Origin: an uncultured Spirochaetota bacterium
Lineage (GTDB): Bacteria > Spirochaetota > UBA4802 > UBA5550
Reading direction: 5' to 3'
Assembly (NCBI GenBank): GCA_963827275.1
Contig: CAWHAA010000010.1
Coordinates: 96,001-160,000, forward strand
DNA: 64,000 nucleotides
The notes below the pieces were generated by a model. The model did no database searches, was not told the DNA's origin, and saw only the letters and a list, made by a program, of their open reading frames with translations. Made by a program: the position numbers and the translations under genes. Shown here piece after piece: positions 10,172-27,923 of this stretch (position 1 is its first letter; the number at the start of each line of letters is the position of its first letter).

Positions 10172-10270
10172 AGAAATTATCGGCTTTCGCTCCGGAAGCC
10201 GCATCCTGCGGCATCCTCGCATCGCCGGGCCTCCTGCCCGGCGGCTAAGCCGGTATCAACCGAAATTTCT
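10172..10270. repeat. MITE/REP-like nested palindrome
   Basis: Terminal inverted repeat agaaatt(a)tcgg / ccgaaatttct; internal hairpins gccgc-ATCCT-gcggc and cgccgggc-CTCCT-gcccggcg. Confidence 0.6.
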
Positions 10271-10271
10271 C

Positions 10272-10300
10272 TTGCAAATAATGCTTACTGCTGTTATACT
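10272..10300 (+). promoter_or_regulatory. sigma70-type promoter with extended -10
   Basis: TTGCAA-17 nt-TATACT, with TG one base upstream of the -10 box. Confidence 0.6.
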
Positions 10301-10386
10301 ATTCCACGGGTAGACATTCGTTTCGACTTTTCATAAATTTTTATCAATTTTCACGGCGCGCGCGATCTTTCGGCAGGCTCAGGACA

Positions 10387-10491
10387 AGAATTTTAAGCCT
10401 CTGTCCGGCGCTTTTTGTGCCGGAGGGGTGTCGGCTTCAGATAAAACGCATCCAGCCGCATAGGCCGCAACCTATGAGGGTGTATTTTCTT
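10387..10491 (+). repeat. dispersed island repeat, copy A (internal deletion relative to C/D)
   Basis: agaattttaagcctctgtccggcgctttttgtgccggagggg..cttcagataaaacgcat..ttttct. Confidence 0.85.
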
Positions 10492-10526
10492 ATGTATTAA
10501 ATTATTCTATTATTCGGGAGAGCGCA

Positions 10527-11918
10527 ATGATACCATGCAGGTTAAAAAGGACAGGATATGCATCTGGATTGATTATTTTTTTCATTGTATTGATGCTGGC
10601 GTTATCAGACGTACAGGCACAGACGGTAAATCCTCAAGATACCCTCAAGCAATATACTGCTGAATTAAAAAAGAATCCTGATAATTATGCCTTGCGGGAA
10701 AAAATCATCAAGCTTGCCCGAACCATAAAACCTGCACCTGCTATACCTGCCGATGCGGAAAACTCTGTCAAACGGGCGGAATCTGCATTCAATAAAGCCA
10801 AAACCGGGGCCGATTTCGCACAAGCAGCGAAGGAGTATGAGAAAGCACTCCTCGTCGCTCCATGGGTGCCTGATTACTATTATAATTGCGCAATCACCTA
10901 TGAAAAAGCTTCGAAACCGGAAGAAGCAATGCGTAATTATGAGCTCTATCTGACCGCAGTGCCCTATACTGCGGATGCGGGTGCTATACGCAAACGCATC
11001 TCGGATCTTGAGAAGCAGGCACAGGTGTCGAATTCTCGGGATGCCCTTAAACAGCATATAGCCGATTTAAAAAAGAATCCTGATAATTATGCGTTGCGGG
11101 AGAAAATAATCAAGCTTGTCAGAAGCATGACACCAGCTCCGGCCATGCCTTCTGATGCGCAAAATTATGCCAAAAGTGCGGAATCAGCATTCAACAAAGC
11201 CAAAACCGAAGCAGATTTCACACGAGCAGCGAAGGAGTATGAGAAAGCACTCCTCGTCGCACCATGGGTGCCTGACTACTATTATAATTGCGCCGTCACC
11301 TATGAAAAAGCTTCGAAACCGGAAGAAGCACTGCGTAATTATGATCTCTATCTGACCGCTGCCCCCAATACTGGGGATGCAAATGCCATACGAAAACATA
11401 TCGACGAACTTGAGAATCAGGCATATCGGGCTAAAAAATATGAAAAGGGATATGATTATAAAGAGAAAAAAAGAGACGAGCTTTTACTCCTGAACGCACA
11501 GAAATCAACCGTTGGAGCGTGGGCCATGTCATTTTTCATTGGAGCATTTACCCCCTTCCTCGGAAGCGGTCAGTACTTTGCTGAATCGTACGGGACGGCC
11601 GTATGCACTACGCTTATCGGGCTTGCTTCGTATGGAATATTCCTGGGTGGAGTGGTTCCGGAAGAAAATGCATCAGAGAATAGAATCAAGGAAAAAAGAA
11701 AACTCACGATTGCCGGTGGTGTGATATTTACCGCTGTCTGGTTTTTTGACTGGATATACGCGCCGCTGGCCACGATGAAATATAATGAGAAGTTGAAGGA
11801 AAAATTCTCGTCATCGACAGGTTCGATTGTTCCACTGTTTTCGTATGTTCCGCAATTTTCTTACAAATTATCAGATGTCGACCATGTTGTAAAGTTGGGG
11901 CTGTCTATGCGGTTTTGA
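10527..11918 (+). CDS. secreted protein with duplicated TPR module and C-terminal P13-like membrane domain
   Basis: Signal peptide; two copies of a module 402 bp apart; hydrophobic C-terminal domain with GSGQYF and YNEKLK; ends in F. Confidence 0.8.
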   Translation: MIPCRLKRTGYASGLIIFFIVLMLALSDVQAQTVNPQDTLKQYTAELKKNPDNYALREKIIKLARTIKPAPAIPADAENSVKRAESAFNKAKTGADFAQAAKEYEKALLVAPWVPDYYYNCAITYEKASKPEEAMRNYELYLTAVPYTADAGAIRKRISDLEKQAQVSNSRDALKQHIADLKKNPDNYALREKIIKLVRSMTPAPAMPSDAQNYAKSAESAFNKAKTEADFTRAAKEYEKALLVAPWVPDYYYNCAVTYEKASKPEEALRNYDLYLTAAPNTGDANAIRKHIDELENQAYRAKKYEKGYDYKEKKRDELLLLNAQKSTVGAWAMSFFIGAFTPFLGSGQYFAESYGTAVCTTLIGLASYGIFLGGVVPEENASENRIKEKRKLTIAGGVIFTAVWFFDWIYAPLATMKYNEKLKEKFSSSTGSIVPLFSYVPQFSYKLSDVDHVVKLGLSMRF

Positions 11919-12052
11919 ATTTTGAGCAGGGTGCCCCTCGGTTGGTGCTGGATTATCTAACCTCTATGAAGTATTTTAATTATCCAGGATGTTACGGCCA
12001 CACCAGCACCGCCCGATGAGTAGGGTCAGGAGATGGCGCCGTTGGCATCACC

Positions 12053-12121
12053 AGAGGGGGACATCTTCAGATAAAACGCATTCTGCCTCTTGCGACGGAA
12101 CTGATGGCAGGGCAATTTCCC
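12053..12121 (+). repeat. dispersed island repeat, copy B (3' half only)
   Basis: agagggggacatcttcagataaaacgcattctg..gaactga..tttccc aligns without gaps to the 3' part of copy A. Confidence 0.7.
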
Positions 12122-12260
12122 GGTTGATCATTAACAATTTCCATTGATTTTGAGATGATTTTTTTCATTATAATATATAATATATCAGTATCGTTTTAAC
12201 AGGCACAGTGCCCTGTTATTTTATTTATCAAATCAGATTCCACATATCTATCCAGAAAGG

Positions 12261-13361
12261 ATGAATTTTATGAAAAGAAACATTACTGCCACAATGAGAT
12301 TGTCCATCTTCTTAATGACTGCTTTGATATCGTTATTATTTTCCTTTGCCTGTAACAGAAGCGTCACCCCAGCTACCGATGATAGCGGTACCATGAATTT
12401 TTACTTTGGCAATATCCACAGTCACACCGGGCTTTCCGATGGCGAGGGCACGCCCGATGAAGCGTTCTCATGGGCGCGCGATGCGGCAAAGTATGATTTT
12501 TATATAAATACCGACCATGGCGAATACCTGTTCCAGGAACAGTGGGACAGCATCGGAGAATCTGCCGACGCATTTAATGAAGATGGAGCGTTTACGGCGA
12601 TAAGAGGATTTGAATACTCGGAGCCTCTGACCGGACACGCCTGTGTGTACAACACGGATTCCTTTACCGGGGCGGTATTAATGCCAATTTTTACGACATT
12701 CTACACATGGCTTGATCAAATAAATGGCCTCGCCGTATTCAACCATCCAGGCGATTTTGGCGATTTTAACAAATTACAATATTACGAAAAAGTCGCGGAT
12801 AATTTTTTCGGAATAGAAACAGGCAACGGCTCTGATGCCAACAATGACGGCACCTATCTTGATTACTATACGTTGGCCCTTGATAATGGATGGAGAGTGG
12901 CTCCGGTAAGCAACCAGGACAACCACTCCTTTTCCACAAACTCCCACAGGACCGTTATGGTATGTGAAAACCTGACCAGAGATGACATTTATGGCGCTAT
13001 GGCGGCTCGAAGAGTCTATTCTTCGGACGATCCCAACATGAAGATTGTTTTCAAGGCGAATGACGAATGGATGGGTTCGGAAATAAATGTTTCTGAAAAT
13101 AGCGTGGCCTTCACCGTCACTGTAACAGACGACGAGCCAATAACAAAAATGGAGCTGGTTACCGGGGAAGGAGTTGTTGCTTCGGAAATCTCATTTATTG
13201 ACAATAATGGATCGGCGGAATGGGTGCCAACGGTCGCCGTAAATGGAAGCACATACTTCTTTCTCAAGGTATACGAGACGAACCAGCTCGATGCGGATGA
13301 TCCAGGCGACGTTCAGATTGCGGTTACCGCGCCAATATGGATTACCGTATCTGGAATGTAA
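12261..13361 (+). CDS. PHP-fold metallohydrolase lipoprotein (CehA/McbA-like)
   Basis: Lipobox SFAC; GNIHSHTGLSDG, TDH, GFEY, NHP, NQDNH; beta-rich C-terminal domain. Confidence 0.8.
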   Translation: MNFMKRNITATMRLSIFLMTALISLLFSFACNRSVTPATDDSGTMNFYFGNIHSHTGLSDGEGTPDEAFSWARDAAKYDFYINTDHGEYLFQEQWDSIGESADAFNEDGAFTAIRGFEYSEPLTGHACVYNTDSFTGAVLMPIFTTFYTWLDQINGLAVFNHPGDFGDFNKLQYYEKVADNFFGIETGNGSDANNDGTYLDYYTLALDNGWRVAPVSNQDNHSFSTNSHRTVMVCENLTRDDIYGAMAARRVYSSDDPNMKIVFKANDEWMGSEINVSENSVAFTVTVTDDEPITKMELVTGEGVVASEISFIDNNGSAEWVPTVAVNGSTYFFLKVYETNQLDADDPGDVQIAVTAPIWITVSGM

Positions 13362-13582
13362 GCCGTCTGCCCAAATCTTTTTGTGTTGAAGAATCTCAGG
13401 TGCCCGGGAGAGTTCTCCTGAAGCCAATTGTGACCCCCGGGCCTCTGCTGATGAGGTCACAGCTTCATATATATTAATATGTTGTAACGATTGATATATA
13501 AAATAATTTCAATCATCGGATTTCATCGCACTATTGTTATACCGGGTGACCTGCGATATCGGTACGATAAAGTTGAAATCGG

Positions 13583-15772
13583 CTATATTGCTATGTATTT
13601 ATTAGTGTCGATTCCGTACAGTTCGAAAAATATTTGATATAATTCGTATATGCTTCTTCTCGGATCATGTTTTTTTCTTACATCGCAGGCCGCGTTTTCT
13701 GAAATTGAGCCATACAATTCAGCGTTCTCGACTATTTCTCTTAAATGTTTTACCACACTCCCTTTTTCGGGTTCGGCCCATTCGCCTCCGGTATAAATTC
13801 CAGTCGGATCCTTGACGGGGACGATTTTATAATCCACCAGCAGGGAATTGCTGTTGTTGCAAATATCCATGCACCCTCCATAGGCAGTCGTAATTACCGG
13901 TTTGCCAAGGTACATGGATTCCAGGATGCCGAGTCCAAGCCCTTCCGACCGGTGAAGGGTGACATAGCAATCCGATGCATTCAATAATGAAATCCAATCA
14001 TTCCGCGACATGTTTTCATCTATCCAGATAATTTTTTTCCTGAGCCTTGCGGAATTAATGGCATCCCTGAATTCGCCGGACATGCTCTTGAACGATTCGG
14101 AATGCACGCTTTTAAGAACAAGCTTCACATTATCTTTGGAATCGAAAGCACTATCAAAGGCCTCGATGACCTGGATAGGATTTTTACGTATCATGGAACT
14201 GTGAAAATCAAAGCTGAAAATAAACACGAATTCCCCGGGTCCGATATTCAATTTATTTCTTACAATATCACGTTCGGTAATTCTGTTCCAGTTCGGATAA
14301 AACGGGTAGGTTATTTTACTTATCTTGATTTTCGAAAAAGGTTCTATTGAAGATTTTACAAAATCAGAACAAACCAGTATTCTGTCAACATAATTGAAGC
14401 TTTCCTTGAAGGGGAAATGGTTATTGACCTCCCACCACCACACGCCAATATTATATTTATTTTCAAAATATTCCGGGTATTTATTTGCCGCAATCGGTAC
14501 CTGATCGGCGTTAATGAAAGAAAGAGTTATATCCGACAGTGGCCGGGTATGTTTGAATCTTTTTAAATATGACAATTCACATTCCGGCACCTGGGCATGC
14601 CCCGGTTCTATTACGTCCAGCAGCGTGAAATAAATTCCGGATCTGCATAAAACTTTCAAGAAAGAGCGGGCCACTTCGGAAATACCCAGAGTATGTGAAA
14701 AGTAGCCCGCAATGTTTAACTTAATCATTTTGCTGAATTCAACATAATTGTTTAAAAGGCCGATGTAATCGGCCGAAGATCCGTGCGCGCCGGTATTGTC
14801 ATATGAATGTTTCCATAGGTTGAGAAAAATATTTTTCTTTTTTGAATATTTTTCGGGTTTCTTGCAGGAAATAACATTTTGATAATTAACGAACAATTTC
14901 TTTAAATCAGGCTTTTCTTCCAATGTAAATCTATTTTGATACTTCGATATGCTGTTTAAATTATCAAGCTGGATCCCGCTGAAATGGTAAAATACGATTT
15001 TTTCTCCATCAATTGTCCATGCATTATTCTCCAGTTTTATTTCTCTTTCATGCAGATTCCAATATGCAACATTGTACTTCTTGTTCTTAAGTATTTTTAC
15101 GTTTTCAAAATAAATCGGGACGAAATCGATCCATTTTTGATCGACAAACATCCCTCCTTCAAAATTAATATAGCAAAAATTGAACAGCCGCATTTTCCAC
15201 CATAAGATGAATTTTCTTGACTCTTCGCTATTACTGATTGCGATGAATCCCAGATTATAGATTCCTGTTTTAAGAATGTCCTGTTCCGACAGCCCTTTTG
15301 AATCCAGTGGCAATTCGGTTAAAATATGCGGAGTTAAAACTATATTATGATTGGTTAAATATTCATCAATTTCATCAATTGCCGATAAGACAATGATATC
15401 CGGATCAAGGTATACAATCTTTTCATACCCCCTGGCGATGAGGTAGTCAAAAACAAACGGTTTAAACGCGGTATTTAATTCAACTATGTTATATCTGCAG
15501 AGCATATCCTCAAGCTCGGCAAATTCAAAATGTTCTCTTATGCCATAAAGAGAAACCAATTCATATCCTTTTGCATATGCTTCAACGGCTTCGACTAGAT
15601 CGTTTATGTCTTCGAATATATCTGTAATATATATCATAAAATCCCAGTGGGGATTATGTTTCAGAAATGACTCGGCGAGCACCTTTCCGAAATGCAGATA
15701 GTTTTTCGACAGGATTGTATACGCGATGCGTTTTTTTTGATCCTGGAAATCAAGGAATAGTCTGTTTTTCAT
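13583..15772 (-). CDS. bifunctional glycosyltransferase (GT-A domain + GT4-type GT-B domain)
   Basis: YLDPD, GIYNLGF, FVDQKW, YNVAYWN in the N-terminal half; RKNP and HRSEGLGLGILESMYLGKPVI in the C-terminal half. Confidence 0.88.
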   Translation of the reverse strand: MKNRLFLDFQDQKKRIAYTILSKNYLHFGKVLAESFLKHNPHWDFMIYITDIFEDINDLVEAVEAYAKGYELVSLYGIREHFEFAELEDMLCRYNIVELNTAFKPFVFDYLIARGYEKIVYLDPDIIVLSAIDEIDEYLTNHNIVLTPHILTELPLDSKGLSEQDILKTGIYNLGFIAISNSEESRKFILWWKMRLFNFCYINFEGGMFVDQKWIDFVPIYFENVKILKNKKYNVAYWNLHEREIKLENNAWTIDGEKIVFYHFSGIQLDNLNSISKYQNRFTLEEKPDLKKLFVNYQNVISCKKPEKYSKKKNIFLNLWKHSYDNTGAHGSSADYIGLLNNYVEFSKMIKLNIAGYFSHTLGISEVARSFLKVLCRSGIYFTLLDVIEPGHAQVPECELSYLKRFKHTRPLSDITLSFINADQVPIAANKYPEYFENKYNIGVWWWEVNNHFPFKESFNYVDRILVCSDFVKSSIEPFSKIKISKITYPFYPNWNRITERDIVRNKLNIGPGEFVFIFSFDFHSSMIRKNPIQVIEAFDSAFDSKDNVKLVLKSVHSESFKSMSGEFRDAINSARLRKKIIWIDENMSRNDWISLLNASDCYVTLHRSEGLGLGILESMYLGKPVITTAYGGCMDICNNSNSLLVDYKIVPVKDPTGIYTGGEWAEPEKGSVVKHLREIVENAELYGSISENAACDVRKKHDPRRSIYELYQIFFELYGIDTNKYIAI

Positions 15773-15879
15773 CCACCCCCCCTGGGCCAGATAAAATCAT
15801 ACGATTAAAATATAATAATATAAAACCTGTTCCCATATAATCAAACCGGCTGTTTCGGTATATGGTGCATCCGCCATGG

Positions 15880-17499
15880 TCATGGTTTGTACGCAATTAT
15901 TGAGTAATCCAGTTCCATGTTGAAAAGTTTTAAAAGAGGACCTGGCATATCTTCCATTTGATTTGGCATGTCGGGCGGATGCAGTCGAATTATTTCAATA
16001 TTGCCGAATCCTCTTGCTTCAGCTATGAACTTCAGGGTATTGGGAGGAATCGGATTTTTATGTGTCGGATCTGCATAGAAATTACAGGAACCCACCAGTA
16101 AATTTTCAGGATTGGGAGTCTCAAGAATAAGCATTCCTCCTGATTTGAGAATGCGTACGCATTCGTCGAGCAGTGAAATTATTGATTCAAATTGTAAATG
16201 TTCAATAATGTGAAATCCGGTAATTACGCCGAAGCTGTTTTCATTTTGATTGCGCAAATAGCCAATGGCATCGGTCTCAACAACGGAAAGGCCCCGGTCC
16301 ATGCATTCACTTATCATCAAGGTATTGGAGTCTATGCCTGTTGCAGTAAAATTGTTTTCCTTAAGCAGCTCCAGCCATTCGCCCCGTCCGCATCCTATGT
16401 CGAGGATCGGCCATTGCATTGAATAGTTTTCACGCGCCGGCAGATACGGTATATACGCCTGCGCCCGATTTTTAATAACTTCCCGGGTTCCCCTGAACCG
16501 GTCCTCGAAAGACACATACAACGCGTCATAGAGATGATTTTTTTCTTCCAGGATATTTGAAATTTGCTCTGGTGAAAAAGGCTCCGGCATTCTCTTGCTC
16601 GCCTCTTCCAGCAAAAGAGCATGCCTTCGCTGCTGGTCCAGTACGTTGCGTTTTTGATCCAATATTTCAGATTTTGTTTCCGATAATTCCTGGTTGAGTT
16701 TGATGAGTTCATTCTGCAATAATTGCTTTTCTTCCCTTAAGGATAATAACATGTCTTTTAAGGATATGATCTCATCTCCAATCATTTTAAAATTCAATTC
16801 CTGATATACTGCTTTTTCATTGAAGGTCATTTTAATTTGAATAGCATCGTGTGCCACTTTCGTGTTTAGACGATCCAGTTTGCTATGCAATTTCGGGAGC
16901 TGTACCGCTATTATAAATAATCGGGCGCAATATCCCAGGAACGGCACCATCAGTGCCTTGTTTATGAGAAACCGCCTTCTCAATCCTTTTATGTTAATGC
17001 CATGTTCTATTCCTTCCTCTGTGTAAAACCTGATTCCGGCAAGAATATCGATTTTTGTTTTTGAACCGTCTCTTAGATGCTTGAGATACCCCTGGGAGCC
17101 TATTGGGTCAGGGTCGCGTTCAAGCAGCACCCGGTATGACTGAACAATAAATTCCTCGTCGTGATATGCCAGTAATGTTTTGAGTGTGTTGGCGGTGCGG
17201 TTGTTTTTTGTGATTTTATTGATAATCCCGGAATAAAGAAGGTTGTATGTGTTATTCATTCGCAATACATGGTTGAATTTCTCAAGGGTATGCCAGATAA
17301 AGGTGCTTTTTATTGCAGAGAAATTAAAGGGAGAGTCCTGTGAATTTGGCGACGGTGTTTCGCTGATGGAATTCACTCCATCCTGAATATTTTTACAAAT
17401 TTTTAATGGAGTATAATTTTTTGTCCTCAGGGCTGCATCGAGTCGCAACTTTTTCAGAACGCTTTCGATTTTGCTGTCATCTGTTAAATATCCGAACAT
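15880..17499 (-). CDS. class I SAM methyltransferase with DUF4214-like domain and coiled coil
   Basis: EFIVQSYRVLLERDPD; heptad-rich middle; FEDRFRG, ILDIGCGRGEWL, HIIEH, LETPNP, DPTH. Confidence 0.85.
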   Translation of the reverse strand: MFGYLTDDSKIESVLKKLRLDAALRTKNYTPLKICKNIQDGVNSISETPSPNSQDSPFNFSAIKSTFIWHTLEKFNHVLRMNNTYNLLYSGIINKITKNNRTANTLKTLLAYHDEEFIVQSYRVLLERDPDPIGSQGYLKHLRDGSKTKIDILAGIRFYTEEGIEHGINIKGLRRRFLINKALMVPFLGYCARLFIIAVQLPKLHSKLDRLNTKVAHDAIQIKMTFNEKAVYQELNFKMIGDEIISLKDMLLSLREEKQLLQNELIKLNQELSETKSEILDQKRNVLDQQRRHALLLEEASKRMPEPFSPEQISNILEEKNHLYDALYVSFEDRFRGTREVIKNRAQAYIPYLPARENYSMQWPILDIGCGRGEWLELLKENNFTATGIDSNTLMISECMDRGLSVVETDAIGYLRNQNENSFGVITGFHIIEHLQFESIISLLDECVRILKSGGMLILETPNPENLLVGSCNFYADPTHKNPIPPNTLKFIAEARGFGNIEIIRLHPPDMPNQMEDMPGPLLKLFNMELDYSIIAYKP

Positions 17500-17529
17500 A
17501 ATACACCACCACTCTTCAACTTTTACACA

Positions 17530-18741
17530 TTAATTTACATCACTCATTTCTTCGAAAAACACCGAGGGGTACATTTTGCTTACTCCGATAAAGAATTCCC
17601 CGACATTGCCCGCAACTTCAAAACCGGTATAATTATCACACCAATCGATGCAATGATCTATATGCGCGGGGCCCGTATGAAGAGCTATGGATAACGTATA
17701 TTTTCCGACGCCAATATTCATATGCATCGAATACACGCACCGGTAATGCTTTCCCTTGAGCATGAATATTTCTTTTTTATAATAATGAGTATTTGTGCCG
17801 TAGATGTCACGGCCGAATACATCGTTAATTTTTATCCCGGCTGATACATTTGGAAGGTCTTCATATGATTCAATGTCGATAATTATGCTGGTTTTTTCGC
17901 CGGAGCTGATAATGTTTGATCCTGATTTCTCACCTTGAATGGTGATTTTCTTAATTCTTGCCTCGTGAGTGCCATAGGATTGATTCGTATCGCATTTTGT
18001 CTTATTTTTTGCGTCTGGTTCCGGATTTCCTGCGATTAGGAAATTATATCTATTCACCACATCTTCCGGATTTCCTTTTATGGCAATTCTTCCATGATCA
18101 AGCAGCATCGCGCTGTCGCAAAGTACCTTTATGGCATTCAAGTCGTGTGAAACAAAGATAATTGAACCGCCGCTGTTTTTGAATTCGTCGATTTTTTTTA
18201 CGCATTTTTGCTGGAATCTCGCATCGCCAACCGACAGGGCTTCATCCACCAGAAAACATCCGGGATTGGCATGAATGGCGATTGAAAACGCGAGCCTCAT
18301 TACCATCCCCGATGAATAGGTCTTGATCGCTTCATAAATAAATTCGCCCAGCTCTGTAAAATCGATTATCCGGTCTTTTATCCTGTCAATTTCTCCCCGT
18401 GACATGCCCAGAAGCAGGCCATTCATGTATATATTTTCGATCCCGCTCATTTCGAAATTAAAACCGGTGCCCAGCTCCAGGAGGCAGGTAATTTTTCCAT
18501 CGACATGAAGTGAACCGGTGTCCGGAAGATATATTCCAGTCATGATTTTCAATAACGTGGATTTGCCAGCCCCGTTTTCACCGATAACGCCGAGTATCAT
18601 GCCATTTCCCACCTCGAATGAGACGTCTCTGAGGGCCCAGAACTCCGTATGATGTGATTTACGGAAGAATAATTCCTTCAGCCGGTCAGCTGGCGACCTG
18701 TATAATTTAAATTTCTTTGAAACCGAATCAACCCGGATCAT
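17530..18741 (-). CDS. wzt: polysaccharide ABC exporter ATPase with C-terminal Wzt_C domain
   Basis: Start re-called at MIRVDSVSK. GENGAGKST, YSSGM, DEALSVGD, VSHD; ~150-aa beta-rich C-terminal extension. Confidence 0.93.
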   Translation of the reverse strand: MIRVDSVSKKFKLYRSPADRLKELFFRKSHHTEFWALRDVSFEVGNGMILGVIGENGAGKSTLLKIMTGIYLPDTGSLHVDGKITCLLELGTGFNFEMSGIENIYMNGLLLGMSRGEIDRIKDRIIDFTELGEFIYEAIKTYSSGMVMRLAFSIAIHANPGCFLVDEALSVGDARFQQKCVKKIDEFKNSGGSIIFVSHDLNAIKVLCDSAMLLDHGRIAIKGNPEDVVNRYNFLIAGNPEPDAKNKTKCDTNQSYGTHEARIKKITIQGEKSGSNIISSGEKTSIIIDIESYEDLPNVSAGIKINDVFGRDIYGTNTHYYKKEIFMLKGKHYRCVYSMHMNIGVGKYTLSIALHTGPAHIDHCIDWCDNYTGFEVAGNVGEFFIGVSKMYPSVFFEEMSDVN

Positions 18742-18913
18742 TCGGCTAACCCCTGAAATAAATATGCACAGATAAAAATCAGACAGAAATAAATGCAGCT
18801 GGCGATGATATGCCAGATGCCGCTGTATTTCCCATGCGCATATTTTTTTATTAAAAACTGCAGCAATGAGAAAACAAGTGTAACGATCACTACGCATAGT
18901 ATAAGTGTCTTGA

Positions 18914-19684
18914 TCATATGAAATCACGGATATCTTTTTCGAGTTTTTTGAAAATTACGTATGCAAATAATAAAATAACATGCCCCATAATGGCAAGTAT
19001 GATCAAATTTATGAAATCAGGGTATTTTGAGTAGACAAAAATATCGTGATATGCGGACACGAAATAATATGCCGGGTTGAATTTATTAAGCGTCTTCATG
19101 AAATCTGGTACGATATCAATTACATACACAACAGGCGTCAGCCAGAACCAGACCTGGAGAATGATATTGATGATTTCCTTGAAATCCCTGAAAAACACGA
19201 CAAGTATGCTGAAAAAAAATCCGGCGGCATAGGCAAATATCTGCTGGACCAGATAAATAAACGGCAGAAATATTATTGATTCGGATATTGGGTTGCCGGT
19301 AAGAATTAAAAAAATAAAGTATATAAAATAGGTGATGCTGAATGTGATTGTTTCTGAAAGCACCACATACAGCAGAAGAGAGGGCATCGCCAATCGTACC
19401 TTCGATATTATGCTTTTTTTATCCAGAAATACGGTGGATGAGCGGAGTATGGTGTTTACAAAAGCGGTCCAGGGGACAATGCCGGATACAAGGTATACGA
19501 CATACGGCAAACCGCTGCTTGTCCCCGGGCGTATTTTTGCTCCCATGATATTTGAGAAGACCACCGTATAAATGAGTATCATTACCAGCGGCCAGATGAA
19601 AGCCCAGAAAACACCGAGAATTGAACCGGCATACCGTTCAATAAAATCTCTTTTTGTAAATTCATAAAGCAAACGAATATTCAT
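18914..19684 (-). CDS. wzm: polysaccharide ABC exporter permease
   Basis: RYAGSILG..W..I.P, FFRD, WFWLTPVVY, NP motifs; multiple TM helices. Confidence 0.93.
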   Translation of the reverse strand: MNIRLLYEFTKRDFIERYAGSILGVFWAFIWPLVMILIYTVVFSNIMGAKIRPGTSSGLPYVVYLVSGIVPWTAFVNTILRSSTVFLDKKSIISKVRLAMPSLLLYVVLSETITFSITYFIYFIFLILTGNPISESIIFLPFIYLVQQIFAYAAGFFFSILVVFFRDFKEIINIILQVWFWLTPVVYVIDIVPDFMKTLNKFNPAYYFVSAYHDIFVYSKYPDFINLIILAIMGHVILLFAYVIFKKLEKDIRDFI

Positions 19685-20156
19685 GCGCCAACTTGCACCT
19701 ATCTGCCGTATTCTTCATCGAAATCTGTTTGATATTTTGCCCGGAATAATATTTTTTATTCAAAGGAATATATCACCCCCTATTTATTTCGGGGTTAAAT
19801 TCGGCAGTCCAATTTCCCATTTATTCTTGATTACAAGGAGGGGATTTTATTTGTCAATCAAAGATATAAATAACCACAAAAAATGCTGTATTTTTGCGTA
19901 TCACACCATGCCTTTTACAATGATACTATCAGTTACATTATGAATCAGTTTGATGTAAATATTCTGGCAATACACGCAATCGGATAAAACATGTACAAAT
20001 GTCTATTTTGTATATTGATAATTTGATGATTGAAATGGAAATATAACAGAGAAAGAGCAGTTCTATGTAATCACTGTTATTTATTCGATGAATTGATCAT
20101 GCTCAATGGGTGTTAATGATCGTAATCCAGATCCAACGTAAAAAATCCCGCCTGTA

Positions 20157-21902
20157 CTATTTGGATAATTGGCTCTTTGGGTTATTCAACAGCACCATGC
20201 TCTGGGCACGTTCAACAAATTCCAGTATCACCAGGGATGGACGTTTTTTTTCAATTATTGATGTATCGAAACCGCCAAGAACTCTCAATTCATGTATTTC
20301 TTTAATATCATTTTTTAGATAGTCAACCAGAAGCTCTCCAAAACTGTCATGAAAAAATATTGCATTTTTAATTTTTGATCGTTCTTCGTGAACTGATGAT
20401 TTTACGGGTTGAAGAAAGACTTCTTTTTCAAATTGATAGCCGGGCAATAACATCAATCGACTCAGATCAGGTATAAATGTTTTGTTTTCCAAAGAAACAA
20501 TCTGATAATTATCTATTGAATCAGGTTTAATAGAGGGAAATAGATTCGATATATATCGTTTAAGTTTAAAGTAGGCAATTAACGCTCCATATCCATTCCA
20601 ATGCGTATCTAATTTATAAAATAATGGAAATTTCGATTTTGCATTGATAAGATCATTTCTGACATCAATTATTTCAACATCAGAATTTTTCTTCATGTAC
20701 TCAACAAGCTGATCGAGCCTGGTAACGGGGAGAACTCTTTTAAAATTGTCAGGAAGATATTCCGGATAAATGGTTTCCTTGTTCGGTGCAATCAAAACTA
20801 GATACGGTATTCCTTTTTCACGAAGATAATTTCTTTGATATTCAAGATTCACTTTTATTTTTTCCAGTTCTTCTTGAGAATATGGAGAGAGGCCCATCCA
20901 ATCTTTAAAAGAATTCATTTTAGCTGAATATTTTTCTGAATAAAAGAACGACCAGCCGCTTTTACCGACAACAACATAGGAGACCGGTGATATTCCGAGA
21001 AAATGATATTTTAAAAGGCTGTTGCAAAGGATGAGGTGGTTCCTCATGCTGAAATTGTCTAAAAAATAATTTTCATATTTTCTAAAAAAATATTGAATTT
21101 TTTTGACTTCAAAATTTGGTTTAATGGCCAATGTACGGAATTCTGGATTTACAAGCTCCTTGATAAAATGAAAACCCATGTTTGTCATCGGCAGGGCAAT
21201 CATTATGAAAAATAGAACAGCAAATGATGAATTAATTACATTCACGGCTTTATTGTTGATAATTATCCAGTGTATGAAAAAGCCAGCTCCAAAACAAATC
21301 ATGAAAGTGAAAAATATGAGACTCAATTTTATCATTACCCTGTATGACAGGGGCATCATTCGGTATATTTTTCCAAAATCATTAAATGACAATTGGGGAT
21401 CTAATTTCGTTGATTTGATATATACCAGCCCATCCTTTTCAACGAATTGATCAAGTGCTTGATTGGATTTGAAATCCCTGATAATGTCACGTGAATTCCA
21501 TGTGTGTATCGAAAATACCAGGAATTTCAATGAAATTGACTTGATGATCTCTTCACCCGGCCCGGTCATTGGATCCAACCTGATTTTTCTTATGGTGCAA
21601 AAAAATGGCAGGTTAAAGCTGATTGCACCATTCATGTTATCATGGTAGCTCACTAATATCTTTTCAGAATCGGTTTCATTGATTTCATTTCCAATATCGA
21701 AGAAAAACTGAAATTCTTCTTGTTTTATAATTTTTCGTAATTCAATTTCCAGTGAAGTAATCGGTACATTATGGGATAATATGGCGTTGGAAGCCATAAC
21801 AAAAATCGCGAAAAGGATTATATATGCTCCCCGGATAATGTTTCTTTGCGTTACATACTCAATAAACAATTTTTTCATGAAATTCAATGTTCTTACCTGC
21901 AA
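20157..21902 (-). CDS. AlgJ/AlgX-family SGNH-like O-acetyltransferase (paralog 1)
   Basis: GKSGWSF, APNKETIYPE, DTHWN, HDSF, VER motifs; N-terminal TM helices. Confidence 0.82.
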   Translation of the reverse strand: MQVRTLNFMKKLFIEYVTQRNIIRGAYIILFAIFVMASNAILSHNVPITSLEIELRKIIKQEEFQFFFDIGNEINETDSEKILVSYHDNMNGAISFNLPFFCTIRKIRLDPMTGPGEEIIKSISLKFLVFSIHTWNSRDIIRDFKSNQALDQFVEKDGLVYIKSTKLDPQLSFNDFGKIYRMMPLSYRVMIKLSLIFFTFMICFGAGFFIHWIIINNKAVNVINSSFAVLFFIMIALPMTNMGFHFIKELVNPEFRTLAIKPNFEVKKIQYFFRKYENYFLDNFSMRNHLILCNSLLKYHFLGISPVSYVVVGKSGWSFFYSEKYSAKMNSFKDWMGLSPYSQEELEKIKVNLEYQRNYLREKGIPYLVLIAPNKETIYPEYLPDNFKRVLPVTRLDQLVEYMKKNSDVEIIDVRNDLINAKSKFPLFYKLDTHWNGYGALIAYFKLKRYISNLFPSIKPDSIDNYQIVSLENKTFIPDLSRLMLLPGYQFEKEVFLQPVKSSVHEERSKIKNAIFFHDSFGELLVDYLKNDIKEIHELRVLGGFDTSIIEKKRPSLVILEFVERAQSMVLLNNPKSQLSK

Positions 21903-21923
21903 TAACCGGACAACCGGAAATAA

Positions 21924-23370
21924 TTAAAACTTAAAATAAAGAAAAGGATGATAGGTGACGCTTGCCACCTGGATTACGCACAGGAATAATATGACAAGGA
22001 TAATTATATTGTATCCGATATGGACAAATAGTCCTGGCACCCTTGAATAACCGATATCAGTCTTCAATAGCAGATTGTTGATTATACTTCTTAAAAAAGG
22101 AAACAGTGAGGTTGAAAATACGATTCCAAGAATATATGCTATTATAATATTATTATCTATGAACATTCCGGCATAATAATGGTCGCTCCCGTGCGACAGC
22201 CCGGCCATGGTTTTGATGTATTGAACGGCGGATGTCAGCGATTCGGAGCGGAAAAAAACCCATCCCAGCGTGATAATGAGGATCGCATATACGTGCCGGA
22301 GTGGAGACCATAGGGAATAGATAAATTTTCCCAGGTTTGCTCCTCTCTATAATAAGAAATGTGCCATGCCAGAGTCCCCATATCGCAAAGCACCAGCTCG
22401 CACCATGCCATAATCCGCAGAGGAAAAAAACGATGAGCAGATTAATATACATCCTTGCCGGGCCGACCCTGTTGCCGCCGAGCGGAATATACAGGTAGTC
22501 CTTGAACCATGTGGAAAGTGATATATGCCATCGCTGCCAGAAATCCCTGATAGATTTTGACATATAGGGATAATTGAAGTTCTCCATAAAGCGAAATCCG
22601 AACATGCGGCCCAGCCCTATTGCCATATCAGTGTATCCGGAAAAATCAAAATATAACTGGATGGTATACCCGATGGCGCCCAGCCATGCCGCGGACATCG
22701 TTAAATCGTGAACATTTACCTTGAATATCTCATCCACAACAGGAGCAATCGTGTCGGCGATCAGGACCTTTTTCCCCAACCCTATGATGAACCGTTGAAT
22801 GCCGCCGGCTAACGTTCCGGAATCAATTTTTCTTTCTTTGAACTGGTCCGATACGTCGGGGTACCGGCTTATAGGGCCCGCCATCAATTGCGGAAAAAGC
22901 GATATATATAGTCCGACATTGACTATATTGTTATCAGCAACAATTTTTTTTCTGTAGACATCAATAATATATGACAATGCCTTGAATGTGAAAAATGATA
23001 TTCCTATGGGGAGATGATATTTCGGTATGGTGATGGTGTCGAAGCTGAGTATGGAAACAATAAAGTGCGTGTATTTGATAAATATGAGCATCCCGAGATT
23101 CGCAATTATGGCGAGGATTGTAATCGCTTTTCTTTTCTGCACGCCGGCAGTCGTATCGGTGTTATTATAATAGCTTATCCGCCGCGCGAAAAAATAGTTA
23201 AACAGTATAGAGATCATGATAATGAGAACATAATAATCCTCACCGCAGGCGTAAAAGAAAATGCTTATAACCAGAAGTAGCACGTTTCTCCATTGCTGCT
23301 TTGAGGTAAAATATATCAAAAGTACAGCCGGTAAAAACAGAAACAGGAAAATCGGGGAAGTGAATATCAT
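21924..23370 (-). pseudogene. AlgI/DltB-type MBOAT O-acyltransferase with a +1 frameshift
   Basis: LPIGISFFTF, YFDFSGYTDMAIG, FWQRWHISLS, GLWHG. The reading frame switches at a T4 run (22326-22329) and continues as SLWSPLRHVY..GWVFFRSES..HPFLYFKF. Confidence 0.85.
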
Positions 23371-23509
23371 ATGATCTTGAATTTTTCTCCTGATAAAAAA
23401 TCAGCTGATTTGCTTCAAACCCAGTTATAATGAAACAAATGAGCCGTTGCTACCATTGAAAAGTAAATGGAAAATAATCATTAATAGCTGGTGTGCGGAT
23501 GATTCAGTT

Positions 23510-25213
23510 TCATTGATTATATGTAAAATACTTCAATAGTGCTATGTTCTCCGCTCTTTCAACTATTTCCAGAATGACAATCCCGGGGCGTTCTTTTTCA
23601 ATTATGGATTTATTAAATCCATTGCCCCAGTGCAGATCGCGAATATCCTCAAAATCATTTTTTAAATATCCCGAAAGAGAGTCGCCAAAGCTGTCATGAA
23701 AAAATAGAACCTTTTTTATTTTTTTTTTATCCTGCAGTTTGGATATATTTTTATGTTCTACTATAACATTATGATCAATAAAATACTGGGGCAACAGCAT
23801 CAATCTGCTTAAATCGGAACGAAACGTTTTGCCGGTGATGGATGAAATAGTATATTCGTTATATGAAAACAGGCCAATGAAGGGAAACAGCTGCGCGATA
23901 TATTGCTTAAGCCGGGAATATGCCACAAGTGCTCCATATTCATTCCAGTGGGTATCGGTTTTAAAATATACCGGATACTTTTTTTTCGCCTCCATCAGAT
24001 CCTTTCTGATGTCAATTATATGAATGTCGGATGTATTTTTCAAATAACTTATTATCTGGTCAAGCCTGGTAGCGGGAAGAACTCTTTTAATGATGTCGGG
24101 AAGAAATTCCGGATATATGGTTTCCTTGTTCGGCGCTATTAATATCGCATACTGTATTCCCATTCCACGAAGATAATTTCTTTGGGATTCAAGACTATTT
24201 TTTATTTTTTCAAGGTCTTCCTGCGAATTTGCGGCGAGACCCATCCAGTCCCTGATTGTGATATATTCCGGTGTTCGTTTCTCGGAATAAAAAAATAACC
24301 AACCGTCCTTGCCTCTGATAACATAGGGAACCGGCGAGTTGTTAAGAAGATAATACTTGAAAAGGCTGTTGCAGAGGAGCAGATGGTTCCTGAATCCAAA
24401 GTAATCGTTAAAATATTTTTCATATTTTTTATATAGTTCAGTCATATCGCTGTTTTTAAACATTGGTTTGTGGGACAATTCGCGCTGTTCGACATTTTCA
24501 AGTTCCTTGAAAAAATGAAGTCCCATATTCATCGCTGGCAGCGAAACCAGTATGATGAATAAAACGGTCATCGATGTATTGATCACATTTCTGGCTGCCC
24601 TGTTAATAACTATTTCATGAACAAAAAAGCGGATGCCAATACACGCCAGAAATAGAAAAAATATCAGGCTCAATTTAATCAATAATTTATATGCCGCGGG
24701 AATGCCGGCATATATTTTACCCATGCCGGCATATGCAATATTAGGGTCATCCTGATTGGATTCAATATATACCTGTCCATCTTTATCGGCAAAGCTGCTG
24801 ATTGATTTATTGCAGATGAAATCTTTGACGATATTGCGTGAATCCCAGGTATACAGTGTGAGGAAGAGGTATTTCAGTGAAATTGATTTTATGACACCGG
24901 CGCTTTTCCGGGTCCATGGATCCAGTCTAAAAATTTTAATAGTTTTATAAAAAGGCAGATCAAAATTTATTTCCTGTGGTATTTTATCACGTTTGTTTAG
25001 TACTGATTTTTCACTATCGATTTCATTTAAATTCCTCCCGATATCATAGTAAACTTGAAATATATCTTTTTGTTGAAATGAGTGCAATTCAACGGACAGG
25101 GTTGTGATAGGGACATTTTTGATTATTATCCATACGGATAACACGATAAAAATGGAAACGAGAAGAAACTCGACCGCGCGAATGACTTTATTTTGATGAA
25201 ATACTACACCCAT
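23510..25213 (-). CDS. AlgJ/AlgX-family SGNH-like O-acetyltransferase (paralog 2)
   Basis: GKDGWLF, APNKETIYPE, DTHWN, HDSF; colinear with the 20157..21902 protein. Confidence 0.82.
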   Translation of the reverse strand: MGVVFHQNKVIRAVEFLLVSIFIVLSVWIIIKNVPITTLSVELHSFQQKDIFQVYYDIGRNLNEIDSEKSVLNKRDKIPQEINFDLPFYKTIKIFRLDPWTRKSAGVIKSISLKYLFLTLYTWDSRNIVKDFICNKSISSFADKDGQVYIESNQDDPNIAYAGMGKIYAGIPAAYKLLIKLSLIFFLFLACIGIRFFVHEIVINRAARNVINTSMTVLFIILVSLPAMNMGLHFFKELENVEQRELSHKPMFKNSDMTELYKKYEKYFNDYFGFRNHLLLCNSLFKYYLLNNSPVPYVIRGKDGWLFFYSEKRTPEYITIRDWMGLAANSQEDLEKIKNSLESQRNYLRGMGIQYAILIAPNKETIYPEFLPDIIKRVLPATRLDQIISYLKNTSDIHIIDIRKDLMEAKKKYPVYFKTDTHWNEYGALVAYSRLKQYIAQLFPFIGLFSYNEYTISSITGKTFRSDLSRLMLLPQYFIDHNVIVEHKNISKLQDKKKIKKVLFFHDSFGDSLSGYLKNDFEDIRDLHWGNGFNKSIIEKERPGIVILEIVERAENIALLKYFTYNQ

Positions 25214-25262
25214 TGCACTGCCCTTGCTGCATTAAATCACTCAGGAAGCGGTACTCTGTCAA

Positions 25263-25670
25263 CTATTTATTCAACATACGCTCAAATCTTCGTTTGGAGG
25301 GCATTATATGATGCGGCGTGATTCCGCTTCGCATGCAACAATATCTGGCGGAAAGGATTTTAGATTCGCTGGCAGGTACAGTGCGGATTAAGGTACGCTG
25401 GCAGGCATTGATCGCCGCTACGTCGCTCGTGGCGGGACTCCCCACCTCCTGCCCGTGATTAAAACATTCGTCGACGTCGTACCCTGCATCTTCAATGACG
25501 CTCCGAATATCGTCAATCGTTACGGTTTTATCGTCAAATTCCACGGTCACTTTTTTCGTATTCGGGTCAGCGTTGACGTTTATAATACCTGTCAGTTCAT
25601 TTACCGCATTTTCAATGATCATCTTGCAGTGGTTGCAGCTCATGTCAGGGGTGCTTAATATTTTTTTCAT
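25263..25670 (-). CDS. copZ: CopZ-like heavy-metal chaperone with a run-on C-terminus
   Basis: RBS aggagg; DMSCNHC; the HMA domain ends at AGYDV (~25473) but the frame runs on for ~69 unrelated residues. Confidence 0.75.
   Translation of the reverse strand: MKKILSTPDMSCNHCKMIIENAVNELTGIINVNADPNTKKVTVEFDDKTVTIDDIRSVIEDAGYDVDECFNHGQEVGSPATSDVAAINACQRTLIRTVPASESKILSARYCCMRSGITPHHIMPSKRRFERMLNK
25318..25470 (+). pseudogene. possible decayed PIN-domain (VapC-like) fragment
   Basis: Translates to ..ALIAATSLVAGLP.. followed by a frameshifted RD.KH-like sequence, resembling the PIN C-terminal motif. Confidence 0.4.
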
Positions 25671-25720
25671 TTGTTGTTTCCTCCTGATGATACTCTGAAC
25701 AGACTCGTTTTACAGGAATT

Positions 25721-25840
25721 CTATTTACCCGGAAATTCAACAACCTTTTTAACGATATTGTCTTTCGTGAAACCGAAATACTCCGCCAGCGCCTTTGCGG
25801 GCCCGGACACCCCGAGCTGCTCCATGGTGATGTAGAGGGC
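25721..25840 (-). pseudogene. 3' fragment of a transketolase-type gene
   Basis: ITMEQLGVSGPAKALAEYFGFTKDNIVKKV resembles the transketolase C-terminus; no upstream coding part. Confidence 0.7.
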
Positions 25841-25880
25841 GTGGGGCCGTCCTCTCCTGCGAAAAACAAGTCGTGGGTGA

Positions 25881-26000
25881 AGAAAACTTAAGCCACTATC
25901 CGGCGCTTTTTCTGCCGGAGGGGGCTTAATCTGAGAGGGGCCTGTTTCACATAAAACGCGTTGTGTCACCTGTTCATGAACTGAACAGGTAGCTTTTCCC
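25881..26000 (+). repeat. dispersed island repeat, copy C (most complete)
   Basis: agaaaacttaagccactatccggcgctttttctgccggagggggcttaatctgagagggg..ttcacataaaacgc..gaactga..ttttccc. Confidence 0.85.
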
Positions 26001-26216
26001 AATATAATAATGATAAGATTTTTTCAAGTTTATTGATCTGAGAGATTCAATATAAAGAAAAAACATTGATTTTTTAAATAATAAGCATAAGGTATAACCG
26101 ATTTATAGAATCTCATTATACATTTATAGATAGCGCCCTATTTTCTGTTTGAATATAAATAGTATATTGAGAAAAAAATTAAACAATCTGATATGTTATA
26201 TAATACCAGGAGGGAT

Positions 26217-26834
26217 ATGATGACACGTATCTTTGCGTTTTTGCTTGTAGTATCGTTTCTTGTCGGGTGCTCGTCTTTTGAAGTTGCGGTAAATGACGAT
26301 CCATTTAAAGGCACCACCTTCGTATCTGCGGACATGTGGCACAAGGTTATTGATCAAAATAAAATGGTGTTTGATAATCAGAGGTTCTTGTATGAAAAGG
26401 AGATAAAAAAAGGGAAGGTTTCAAATCCAACGGCATATTTTCTGTTCAAACTCGCGGTTGTTTCTATATTGGGATACAATGGCGAAGATTTTGAAAAAAC
26501 CGCATATATAGTGTGCGATAACAAAAATTTCAAAGCCAATATAATTGACTATAACAAGGTTGAAAGGACTAATGTATCTGGTGAAGCCAAAAGTACAATA
26601 AACTGGGTCAATAGGACAACATCTGCAGAATCAGAAATTGGTACTTCACATATTTGCACAGTTACCGGTAAAATCGTATTGACTCCAGATATTCAACAGG
26701 CAATAGCAAATTGCAGCGTATATATGATACGGTTTTATTTAGCCAAAAACAATGTGCCGGTGACTTTACAGGCAACTGATTCTCAATTAGATGCGGTTAA
26801 GAGGTTTATATCAGTGGATGCTTCAAATAAATAG
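26217..26834 (+). CDS. hypothetical lipoprotein
   Basis: RBS aggaggg; signal peptide with lipobox LVGC; no recognisable family. Confidence 0.8.
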   Translation: MMTRIFAFLLVVSFLVGCSSFEVAVNDDPFKGTTFVSADMWHKVIDQNKMVFDNQRFLYEKEIKKGKVSNPTAYFLFKLAVVSILGYNGEDFEKTAYIVCDNKNFKANIIDYNKVERTNVSGEAKSTINWVNRTTSAESEIGTSHICTVTGKIVLTPDIQQAIANCSVYMIRFYLAKNNVPVTLQATDSQLDAVKRFISVDASNK

Positions 26835-26895
26835 AAAAGCAGAAGAGTTAAATAGGGTTAATGATTCTTCTTCCGTACCGGAGATGTAGGTAAAT

Positions 26896-26983
26896 AGAAT
26901 TTTTAAGCCCCTTTCCAGCGCTTTTTCTGCCGGAGGGGGCATAATTTGAGAGGGGTTCGGCTTCTGATAAAACACATTCAGCA
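26896..26983 (+). repeat. dispersed island repeat, copy D (3' truncated)
   Basis: agaatttttaagcccctttccagcgctttttctgccggagggggcataatttgagaggggttcggcttctgataaaacacatt. Confidence 0.85.
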
Positions 26984-26984
26984 T

Positions 26985-27055
26985 TTTATCACGTGCCCCC
27001 TATGGGGGACAGGGGGTAATACTTTATCACGTGCCCCCATCGGGGGACAGGGGGG
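26985..27055. repeat. two tandem palindromic units, 38-bp period (REP-like)
   Basis: tttatcacgtgccccc-nnn-gggggacaggggg at 26985 and 27023. Confidence 0.8.
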
Positions 27056-27074: not shown

Positions 27075-27923
27075 TTATCTCTTCTTCGCTATATACTCTT
27101 CCAGCTCATCAAGCAACCCAGCCGGCACCGGGCACCCTTTTTGATAGTTCCCGATCGTCTCTTCCTTGTCGCCGTGGAAATCGCTCCCGCCCGTGACGAG
27201 GAGACCATACTTCCGCGCCAGGGCCTGGTACTGATCCGCCAGTTCCGGCGTATGCATTGACGCGTACGCCTCGAGCCCCTCGATGCCTGACCTGACGAAT
27301 CCCTTTAATAGTCTTTCGAACTCATCCATGTCGCGGCATTCCAGCGACACCGGGTGCGCGATGACCGGTATGCCGCCCGACGCCTTGATCAGGGCGATCG
27401 CCTCCTCGAATTCAATCCGCACCTTTTTCACGTACCCTGGCTTGCCCGGTACGAGGTAGTTCTGGAATATCTCCCGTATCGCGGGGGCATACCCGTGACT
27501 GACCATGACCCGGGCGACATGCGGACGTCCGATGGCGGCCGCCCCCGCCTCCGCCAGGACCTCGTCTATCGGGATATCGATGCCATGCTCTTTCAGGTCG
27601 TCGATGATGCGGTGGACCCGGGTGGCCCGCAACTCGGACAGGGTCTTCACCCTCTTCCGAAGATCTTCATGCCGGTAGTCCAGGTTGAGGCCGATAAGGT
27701 GAAACGAGCCGGTCGGGTACTCGATGCTGAATTCCACGCCGGGGAAAAGGCGAAACCTGACCGACGAGGCATATTCCATCGCTTCCGGCAGCCCGTCAAC
27801 CGTATCGTGGTCGGTGATTGCCATGGCGACGAGACCGCCGCTGCGCGCGAGATCTATAAGCCTGGTGGGTGTATATATCCCGTCCGAGGCGGTGGTGTGG
27901 GTGTGCAGGTCGATTTTTTTCAT
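27075..27923 (-). CDS. PHP domain phosphoesterase (TrpH/YciV-like)
   Basis: DLHTHTTASDG, ITDHD, GVE, GRPH, AHP, GGSDFHG. Confidence 0.92.
   Translation of the reverse strand: MKKIDLHTHTTASDGIYTPTRLIDLARSGGLVAMAITDHDTVDGLPEAMEYASSVRFRLFPGVEFSIEYPTGSFHLIGLNLDYRHEDLRKRVKTLSELRATRVHRIIDDLKEHGIDIPIDEVLAEAGAAAIGRPHVARVMVSHGYAPAIREIFQNYLVPGKPGYVKKVRIEFEEAIALIKASGGIPVIAHPVSLECRDMDEFERLLKGFVRSGIEGLEAYASMHTPELADQYQALARKYGLLVTGGSDFHGDKEETIGNYQKGCPVPAGLLDELEEYIAKKR

Follow-up and report, generated by a model that had tools for sequence, protein, structure and literature searches.

The closest described relatives of the repeat studied here are found in four kinds of mobile systems. IS91-type elements, transposed by HUH enzymes, insert at a four-nucleotide target, the second bottom-strand position of which is T, and do not duplicate it; 82 bp of the right end suffice, and one-ended transposition is frequent (PMC13181058). 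Miniatures of the IS801 right end that start at a target-like tetranucleotide are mobile as well (PMC3189936). Elements of the ISCR group carry variable genes on the side of their oriIS, and according to one account none of them had been shown to transpose as of 2018 (PMC6218425). In Acinetobacter, dif-like sites are reported to exchange only with sites that have closely related central regions, via cointegrates (PMC11705084). Integrons, finally, keep repeats (attC sites) between their cargo genes. The origin of integron cassettes and of dif modules, and the way in which genes reach the oriIS side of ISCR elements, are open questions. Here, we analysed a stretch of 64,000 nucleotides (the window, whose coordinates are used throughout) from an uncultured Spirochaetota bacterium (assembly GCA_963827275.1, contig CAWHAA010000010.1, positions 96,001 to 160,000), in which copies of a repeat bound and subdivide an AT-rich island. 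Judged from its sequence, this repeat is probably the right-end module, about 128 bp long, of an IS91-family (HUH) rolling-circle element, and would serve both as an oriIS and as a portable dif-type site. The repeat system points to an integron-like collection of genes by a transposase and the Xer recombinases of the host.

A profile was built from the strong repeat matches in the source genome (G000; 4.13 Mb, contigs labelled C1, C4, C5, C6, C8 and C10), with a cut-off of E ≤ 0.01. This search found 66 copies, and a broader model 73, while the best match in the reversed genome had E = 0.33. The copies are strongly clustered: 56 of the 66 have a neighbour within 15 kb, compared with at most 38 in 1000 random placements, and neighbouring copies are directly repeated in 33 of 39 cases. 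The 34 segments between copies have a median guanine-cytosine (GC) content of 0.45, versus 0.57 at random, and 16 of them contain one gene called by a rough gene caller. The repeat model matched 39 of the 122 genomes of the order, including all 16 congeners; five congeners have 28-118 matches each, which are lower bounds. No match was obtained in viral contigs for the repeat or the transposase, nor in plasmids for the repeat. A search for conspecific contigs in metagenomes of the Joint Genome Institute gave none with a pattern of the island flanks and two with a repeat pattern.

The original prediction had recognized four copies (A, B, C and D) on one strand of the window, and all four are real. 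It missed copy E and an inverted 3' fragment, which bring the content of the window to five co-oriented copies and one fragment. It was right that the GC-rich backbone of the window holds no further copy (the next best match of the profile search had E = 0.47), and that copies A and D bound an AT-rich island, with a GC content of 0.34-0.45 in its segments and 0.57-0.58 in the flanks. The many copies around low-GC genes elsewhere in the genome agree with its expectation too.

The partner enzyme of the repeat is encoded elsewhere in the same genome. Each of the three Y2_Tnp matches in G000 is closely followed by a copy on its own strand. The intact transposase gene (C8:82117-83349) encodes 410 amino acids with the Pfam domains Y2_Tnp and Zn_Tnp_IS91 and an HUH motif in the form HVH. 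Its product scores 154 bits with the IS91-family model NF033538 (cut-off 125), and shares about 25% protein identity with the transposases of IS91, IS801 and IS1294. The model of ISCR clade Ia (NF052416) gave 32.5 bits, far under its cut-off of 925. Relatives of the transposase occur in 54 of the 122 genomes of the order. We compared 21 related loci from 12 metagenome-assembled genomes of Spirochaetota, 19 of which have downstream DNA. A same-strand copy begins 128-181 bp after the transposase match in 16 of these 19 loci and further off in two, while no downstream copy was detected in the last one (transposase of 58% identity). Overall, 51 copies were found in 128 kb downstream of the related transposases (45 on the same strand), versus three in 194 kb upstream. 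At the opposite end, where terIS would be expected, conservation ends about 60 bp upstream of the gene in 18 loci, and a GC-rich hairpin is present in some. One copy was found inserted within a transposase gene of the same family (L050:9887-10342).

Two other candidate partners were rejected. Repetitive extragenic palindromic (REP) elements with their RAYT enzymes, or IS200/IS605 ends, do not fit, as none of the six Y1_Tnp matches adjoins a copy and the hairpin is not conserved; likewise, none of the four phage-integrase matches adjoins a copy. The earlier observation that no recombinase is encoded here holds for the window, whereas the candidate enzymes are present elsewhere in G000: besides the transposase, we found xerD over its cut-off and a xerC-like gene below it. 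The original prediction is supported at its core: the repeats bound variable cargo and are ends, or sites of recombination, of an element that is not autonomous and on which an enzyme of the HUH type acts in trans. A copy beside an HUH transposase, which it proposed to look for, was found.

Both ends of the module can be defined. Across 88 edges, sequence information drops to near zero immediately 5' of AAAT, so that the 5' edge is sharp. The 3' end is TTCCTAGATAA followed by TWAW, with A at the third flank position in 87% of 60 unique ends (of the 88, 27 were off the anchor pattern and one was a duplicate). Two plasmid-borne IS91-type elements end in TTCC(T/C)ATACGT followed by GAAC, about 165-170 bp past the stop codon, and the 3' end of the module parallels the oriIS end motif of this type. 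A match to a known IS91-type end identifies the element; it does not refute gene capture.

The middle of the repeat resembles a dif site. An 11-6-11 core lies at repeat positions 62-89, with the spacer at 73-78. When G000 was searched with a matrix of this core from which the spacer was masked, the top match outside the repeats was C6:270024, at 29.1 bits versus 21.4 bits for the next. This site is 13.5 kb from the GC-skew maximum of its contig and 7 kb from xerD. Its 28-mer is exactly conserved in 13 of the 17 genomes of the genus and has one mismatch in another, with no match in the reversed control. From its position, conservation and layout we infer that C6:270024 is a candidate for the chromosomal dif. 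Over 137 unique full copies, the two arms of the repeat match this candidate at 8.0 and 7.7 of 11 positions, while its spacer occurs in none of the 137; the arms are conserved around a variable 6-bp spacer. The inner motif ATAA is kept at 87-94% per position, and the TT of the right arm at 89 and 94%. Such a core is absent from the two classical IS91-type ends that were examined. Hence, of the earlier statement that the repeats are neither attC nor dif sites, the first half stands and the second does not. We dropped an earlier view, in which a dif-like site would arise where the 3' and 5' ends of the repeat join, after the core had been located in mid-repeat. Second dif-like sites with one or two arm mismatches and other spacers were seen in two congeners (G011:C42:11638 and G002:C248:598).

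The same core is the target of a group II intron. The intron at C4:456331-458280 (L016), whose reverse transcriptase/maturase is over the cut-off of TIGR04416, is inserted between repeat positions 83 and 84, inside the right arm of the dif mimic, and the same holds at all three loci found (also L059:8826 and L106:1740-2592).

Hybrid copies, which the original prediction had named as a sign of recombination, were found as well. In a pairwise comparison of the 137 unique full copies, 62 pairs share one near-identical part. Eighteen of these half-identical pairs break at positions 73-82, and they represent seven independent groups (four from the congener G008, two from G000 and one from a related transposase locus). 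The parent switch thus falls at 73-82 in seven of seven groups, against an expectation of 24% under a uniform null and 36-45% under simulated homology-weighted nulls (p from 4e-5 to 0.0035 across nulls). In one hybrid of which both parents are present, the switch is bounded to positions 77-80, at the junction of spacer and right arm. We also compared contigs of four public sequencing runs (X1-X4, of 24 listed runs) with the window. Contig joints 10391>25888 (two runs) and 10416>25914 (three runs) lie inside repeats with a short side of 26-45 letters, and are not used as proof of hybrids between copies A and C.

The DNA between the copies differs among genomes. The two genes that flank the island are 4-38 bp apart, as an empty site, in 15 of the 16 congeners; in the remaining one, G009, each of them is on a contig of its own, and the PHP gene adjoins a copy. 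The blocks at orthologous sites differ between G009 and G010, and a gap left empty in G000 is occupied in G009 by 2 kb and one module. In the two arrays headed by a transposase gene, which are those with the most intact such genes, four and two of the copies downstream have 100% identity to the head copy, and pairs with at least 95% identity make up 13 of 39 near pairs versus none of 907 distant pairs. Such identical copies separate blocks whose GC content ranges from 0.34 to 0.55. In 20 stretches of G008 with 109 copies, chosen for containing repeat matches, a 1607-bp unit that runs from a 5' edge to an oriIS end occurs twice with 99.25% identity, and a second shared unit begins at about position 80 of a copy and extends to position 79 of the following one. 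Facing or back-to-back copies a few bases apart occur too. A block of about 14 kb with several copies was seen in two arrays of G008 at 96-99% identity (L103 and L107-L108), which could be an assembly overlap.

The array on C8 contains a second tRNA-Val(CAC) gene (C8:71697-71770), which is not syntenic and is followed by an integrase remnant, and half of an AMP-binding gene cut at a module edge, as the transketolase pieces of the window are at copy C. Because of this non-syntenic tRNA gene and the half gene, we regard the blocks as imported. The native tRNA-Val(CAC) gene at C5:381847 is syntenic in four of four congeners, which weakens local hopping into native DNA as a source of this array. 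An IS256-family transposase lies within the array at 154-161 kb of C8 (L025:5093-6274), and a ParE/Phd toxin-antitoxin pair just upstream of another copy (L030:6041-6819). In the public runs, one X3 contig carries cargo 4 of the window with the flanking repeat ends (25903-27014, one difference), and an X2 contig likewise has a nearly unchanged cargo 4. Cargo 1-3 are not covered in X2-X4, nor is cargo 4 in X1, a pattern that suggests differences among strains but cannot show absence.

The most likely mechanism, all enzyme steps of which are proposed from the comparisons above, would run as follows. The HUH transposase, acting in cis or in trans, would nick at oriIS and usually stop at the 5' edge of the module, so that solo modules would be pasted at TWAW targets, including those in incoming foreign DNA. 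Read-through to an earlier module would move module, cargo and module as a single unit. Since a pasted copy has the 6-bp spacer of its parent, XerC and XerD of the host could recombine the pair and dock the tagged DNA at a resident array. Later Xer exchanges between compatible copies would reshuffle blocks and leave hybrid copies, and transcription of the first cargo gene may come from an outward promoter within the head spacer. The course proposed is in line with the Acinetobacter sites, which exchange only where their central regions are closely related, and by cointegration (PMC11705084). We put at roughly even chances that this is a cassette system of two enzymes without an integrase of its own: the IS91-type transposase, with its single tyrosine, would supply foreign DNA with new dif sites whose spacers match, and XerCD of the host would then dock the tagged pieces at a promoter-bearing head site and reshuffle them.

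Several observations weigh against this two-enzyme system. The transposase has RxxxY, with R264 and Y268 aligned to the YxxxY of two plasmid IS91-type proteins, and RxxxY is also present in 12 of the 13 close relatives that cover the motif. For IS91, both tyrosines are reported to be needed (PMC5714925). In the right arm, TTAT is poorly conserved: its third base is A in only 10% of copies. In Acinetobacter, divergence from ATAA-spacer-TTAT goes with poor recombination; directly repeated sites did not excise in the experiments described there (PMC11705084). The hybrid groups number only seven, four of them from a single genome, and 44 half-identical pairs that break at 29-46 or 96-102 were set aside as conserved tips. 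No circle or excision junction was seen in the contigs of the public runs. Circular permutation was not found for the half AMP-binding gene, and cargo that is not circularly permuted did not come from a simple circle opened once. One cargo common to G000 and G009 is inverted relative to its module, one module-bounded segment of another genome has a homologue in G000 without an adjoining copy, and homologues of cargo 4 occur at 19 other loci without a copy within 1.5 kb. Finally, a replication-strand bias, judged against GC skew, holds for 44 of 61 copies, yet for 17 of 25 clusters (p = 0.11), and is not claimed.

The main rival dispenses with the Xer recombinases and seems rather unlikely to us. 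In this scenario, IS801-type miniature right ends would hop, targeting each other's ends and AT-rich DNA, read-through between two oriIS would move cargo, RecA or gene conversion would make the hybrids, and the likeness to dif would serve only the replication of the transposon itself or be a relic. Miniature right ends that start at a target-like tetranucleotide are known from IS801 (PMC3189936), and capture between two sequential oriIS is described for ISCR28 (as cited in PMC12772301); moreover, the exact-edge unit, the copy inside a transposase gene, and the facing or back-to-back copies need no Xer activity. However, the switches fall at the spacer even when judged against the homology-weighted nulls, one of them within 77-80, and both arms are conserved around the variable spacer over all 137 copies, while the two classical ends have no such core. 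Free hopping would also scatter identical copies, whereas identical copies occur only within arrays.

An improbable alternative is that the modules are passive debris, piling up in AT-rich islands that were acquired by other routes. The TWAW target is commoner in AT-rich DNA, the homologues of cargo 4 elsewhere occur without copies, and most IS801 fragments have been argued to stem from rearrangements (PMC3189936). Against a merely passive role, islands begin at a head spacer and end at a module beside backbone genes, G009 has cargo and one module in the gap that is empty in G000, units shared between places have module-exact ends, and identical copies separate blocks of widely differing GC content.

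A multi-copy structured RNA, which the original prediction offered as its alternative, or an attC-like single-strand hairpin site of an integron integrase is largely refuted and very improbable: copy C folds well (z-score -3.5), a gene resembling an integron integrase lies on C5 below the cut-off, and the repeat, like attC with its IIC-attC introns, is the target of a group II intron, but RNAalifold found no consensus pair across 53 copies, no Rfam match lies on a copy (window 8000-29000, three weak matches, best E = 0.064), the RYYYAAC/GTTRRRY ends of attC are lacking in the repeat, and the integrase-like gene is about 98 kb from the nearest copy. The imperfect, bulged hairpin that had been described is therefore not a feature of the family (z < -2 in three of 11 folded copies, +0.4 for the transposase-adjacent copy), and the reasoning from this hairpin to an enzyme that processes single-stranded DNA is not supported. 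No gene in G000 exceeds the cut-off of the integron integrase model TIGR02249. The best candidate (C5:39542-40744; L120) encodes a tyrosine recombinase of 400 amino acids, with the integron integrase model as its best bacterial match, and a broken integrase lies at 300 kb of C5.

The proposed two-enzyme system combines traits of the systems named at the outset. A single catalytic tyrosine is a trait of ISCR elements, too. Like ISCR1 and ISCR28, the system has an HUH transposase whose gene is followed shortly by an oriIS, with variable genes on that side; for ISCR28, capture of DNA from one oriIS end to the next is described as well (as cited in PMC12772301). ISCR elements also have an outward promoter in the oriIS region (PMC6218425), to which the candidate in our case, a consensus match only, would correspond. 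No conserved terIS was found at the loci studied here. It differs from ISCR, as far as these are described in the sources cited, in that the transposase is far below the clade Ia cut-off and the end is a discrete 128-bp module with a dif mimic and tens of solo copies per genome. With IS91, IS801 and IS1294 it shares membership of NF033538, the same oriIS end motif, a four-nucleotide target whose third top-strand base is A and the lack of a target duplication (PMC13181058), and with IS801 miniatures that begin at a target-like tetranucleotide (PMC3189936). In contrast, these elements have YxxxY instead of RxxxY and target GAAC or CAAG instead of TWAW, whereas the present module has one fixed miniature length, arrays with imported blocks and a dif core, which the two classical ends examined lack. 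The pdif or xrs modules and the chromosomal dif-module islands of Acinetobacter resemble the present arrays in that gene modules in a linear series are set apart by numerous dif-like sites whose central regions vary (PMC12907356). The Acinetobacter sites are, however, bare 28-bp sites, mostly in inverted pairs, while here 33 of 39 neighbours are direct and the site lies within a copyable transposon end. Integrons likewise have an enzyme gene and an outward promoter (a candidate in our case) at the head, repeats between the cargo, a content that varies among strains, and repeats targeted at a fixed position by group II introns, as reported for attC sites (PMC7923331). Unlike integrons, the arrays have no attC structure or end motifs and no linked IntI, and their cargo lies in either orientation, extends up to 12 kb and often includes cut genes.

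The features of the window are listed below. The array in the window appears to be an older one that has lost its transposase gene.

Features of the window in and around the low-GC island
Feature	Position	Strand	Remarks
Left backbone gene, phosphotransferase system (PTS) EIIA + zinc ribbon (Pfam)	9038-9856	+	Left flank of the empty site
Head spacer	10256-10365	+	Matches the post-transposase region of transposase loci; transposase gene lost here
Candidate outward sigma-70-type promoter	10272-10300	+	Directed toward the array; consensus match only
Copy A, head copy	10388-10497	+	15-nt internal deletion; oriIS-type end at 10497, then TAAA
dif-mimic core of copy A	10434-10461	+	11-6-11
Cargo 1, TPR-repeat protein gene	10527-11918	+	GC 0.45
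Inverted 3' repeat fragment	11977-12020	-	Model positions 85-128; E = 0.002; oriIS-type end facing cargo 1
Group II intron remnant	12018-12052	-	Final 35 bp; 35/35 identical to the intron end at G000:C4:458246-458280
Copy B, 3' two-thirds	12043-12127	+	dif core 12064-12091; degenerate oriIS end
Cargo 2, CehA/McbA-family metallohydrolase gene	12261-13361	+	NF038032 over cut-off
Copy E, diverged	13354-13474	+	E = 8.5e-18; then TAAT
Cargo 3, surface-polysaccharide block + heavy-metal-binding (HMA) gene	13583-25670	-	GC 0.39
Two rearranged transketolase fragments	25721-25883	-	Severed at the 5' edge of copy C
Copy C, complete	25883-26007	+	dif core 25944-25971; oriIS-type end at 26007, then TAAT
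Cargo 4, gene of no known family	26193-26834	+	GC 0.34; N-terminal lipobox LVGC read from the sequence
Copy D, positions 1-83	26898-26981	+	Stops at the intron insertion point; short REP-like repeats next
Right backbone gene, PHP domain	27075-27923	-	Right flank of the empty site

The head spacer occurs ten times in G000, nine of them directly before a repeat. The candidate promoter within it, TTGCAA-17-TATACT, matches the consensus at nine of 12 positions and has an extended -10 element; two such sites were found versus 0.7 expected in shuffled sequences. A short REP-like palindrome is inserted directly before several head copies (window 10366-10387; C10:167440, C10:169860 and C4:452610 in G000; L065:6072), and a REP-like palindrome of about 20 bp also lies inside the left arm of some copies. 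Contigs from X2, X3 and X4 pass over 318 bp of short repeats that precede the head spacer (window 9917-10234).

Only TPR domains were found in the protein of cargo 1 (Pfam), which has a DNA match in one of the 121 other genomes of the order; its gene contains an internal 402-bp duplication of 84% identity (10614-11315). The TAA stop codon of cargo 2 falls within the start of copy E. The polysaccharide genes of cargo 3 comprise a glycosyltransferase, a methyltransferase, Wzt/Wzm, two AlgX-like genes, which are paralogues of about 72% identity (20157-25213), and an MBOAT gene. The truncated transketolase that had been noticed near copy C is real and extends up to the edge of this copy; its fragments have 82-84% nucleotide identity to the transketolase gene of G000 on C1. 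A tRNA-Pro(GGG) gene lies at 7708-7782, 2.6 kb left of the island, which does not begin there. In the same genome, the frame of an alanyl-tRNA synthetase is split (L024:4442-5806; 454 amino acids versus open frames of about 900 in five relatives), and conspecific contigs show single-base insertions relative to the window (8983 and 27935-28015). Because of this split frame and these insertions, we conclude that the assembly has indel errors, and hence some genes that appear broken may be artefacts.

Our search of mostly openly readable literature found no paper that joins oriIS and dif. Here, a single 128-bp sequence joins both systems. The transposase, the recombinases and candidate dif of the host, the target motif and the point of crossover can all be named, so that a route for the making of new cassettes becomes directly testable. 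Throughout a genus of spirochaetes (16 of 16 genomes), the module also shows where tens of accessory-gene blocks per genome meet, and these would escape integron searches that look for attC. If the two-enzyme reading is true, these bacteria would build arrays like those of integrons, with as many as about 100 sites in a genome, in which drift of the spacer would lock old cassettes in place, and the same design could explain the origin of dif modules as well as the captured genes on the oriIS side of ISCR elements.

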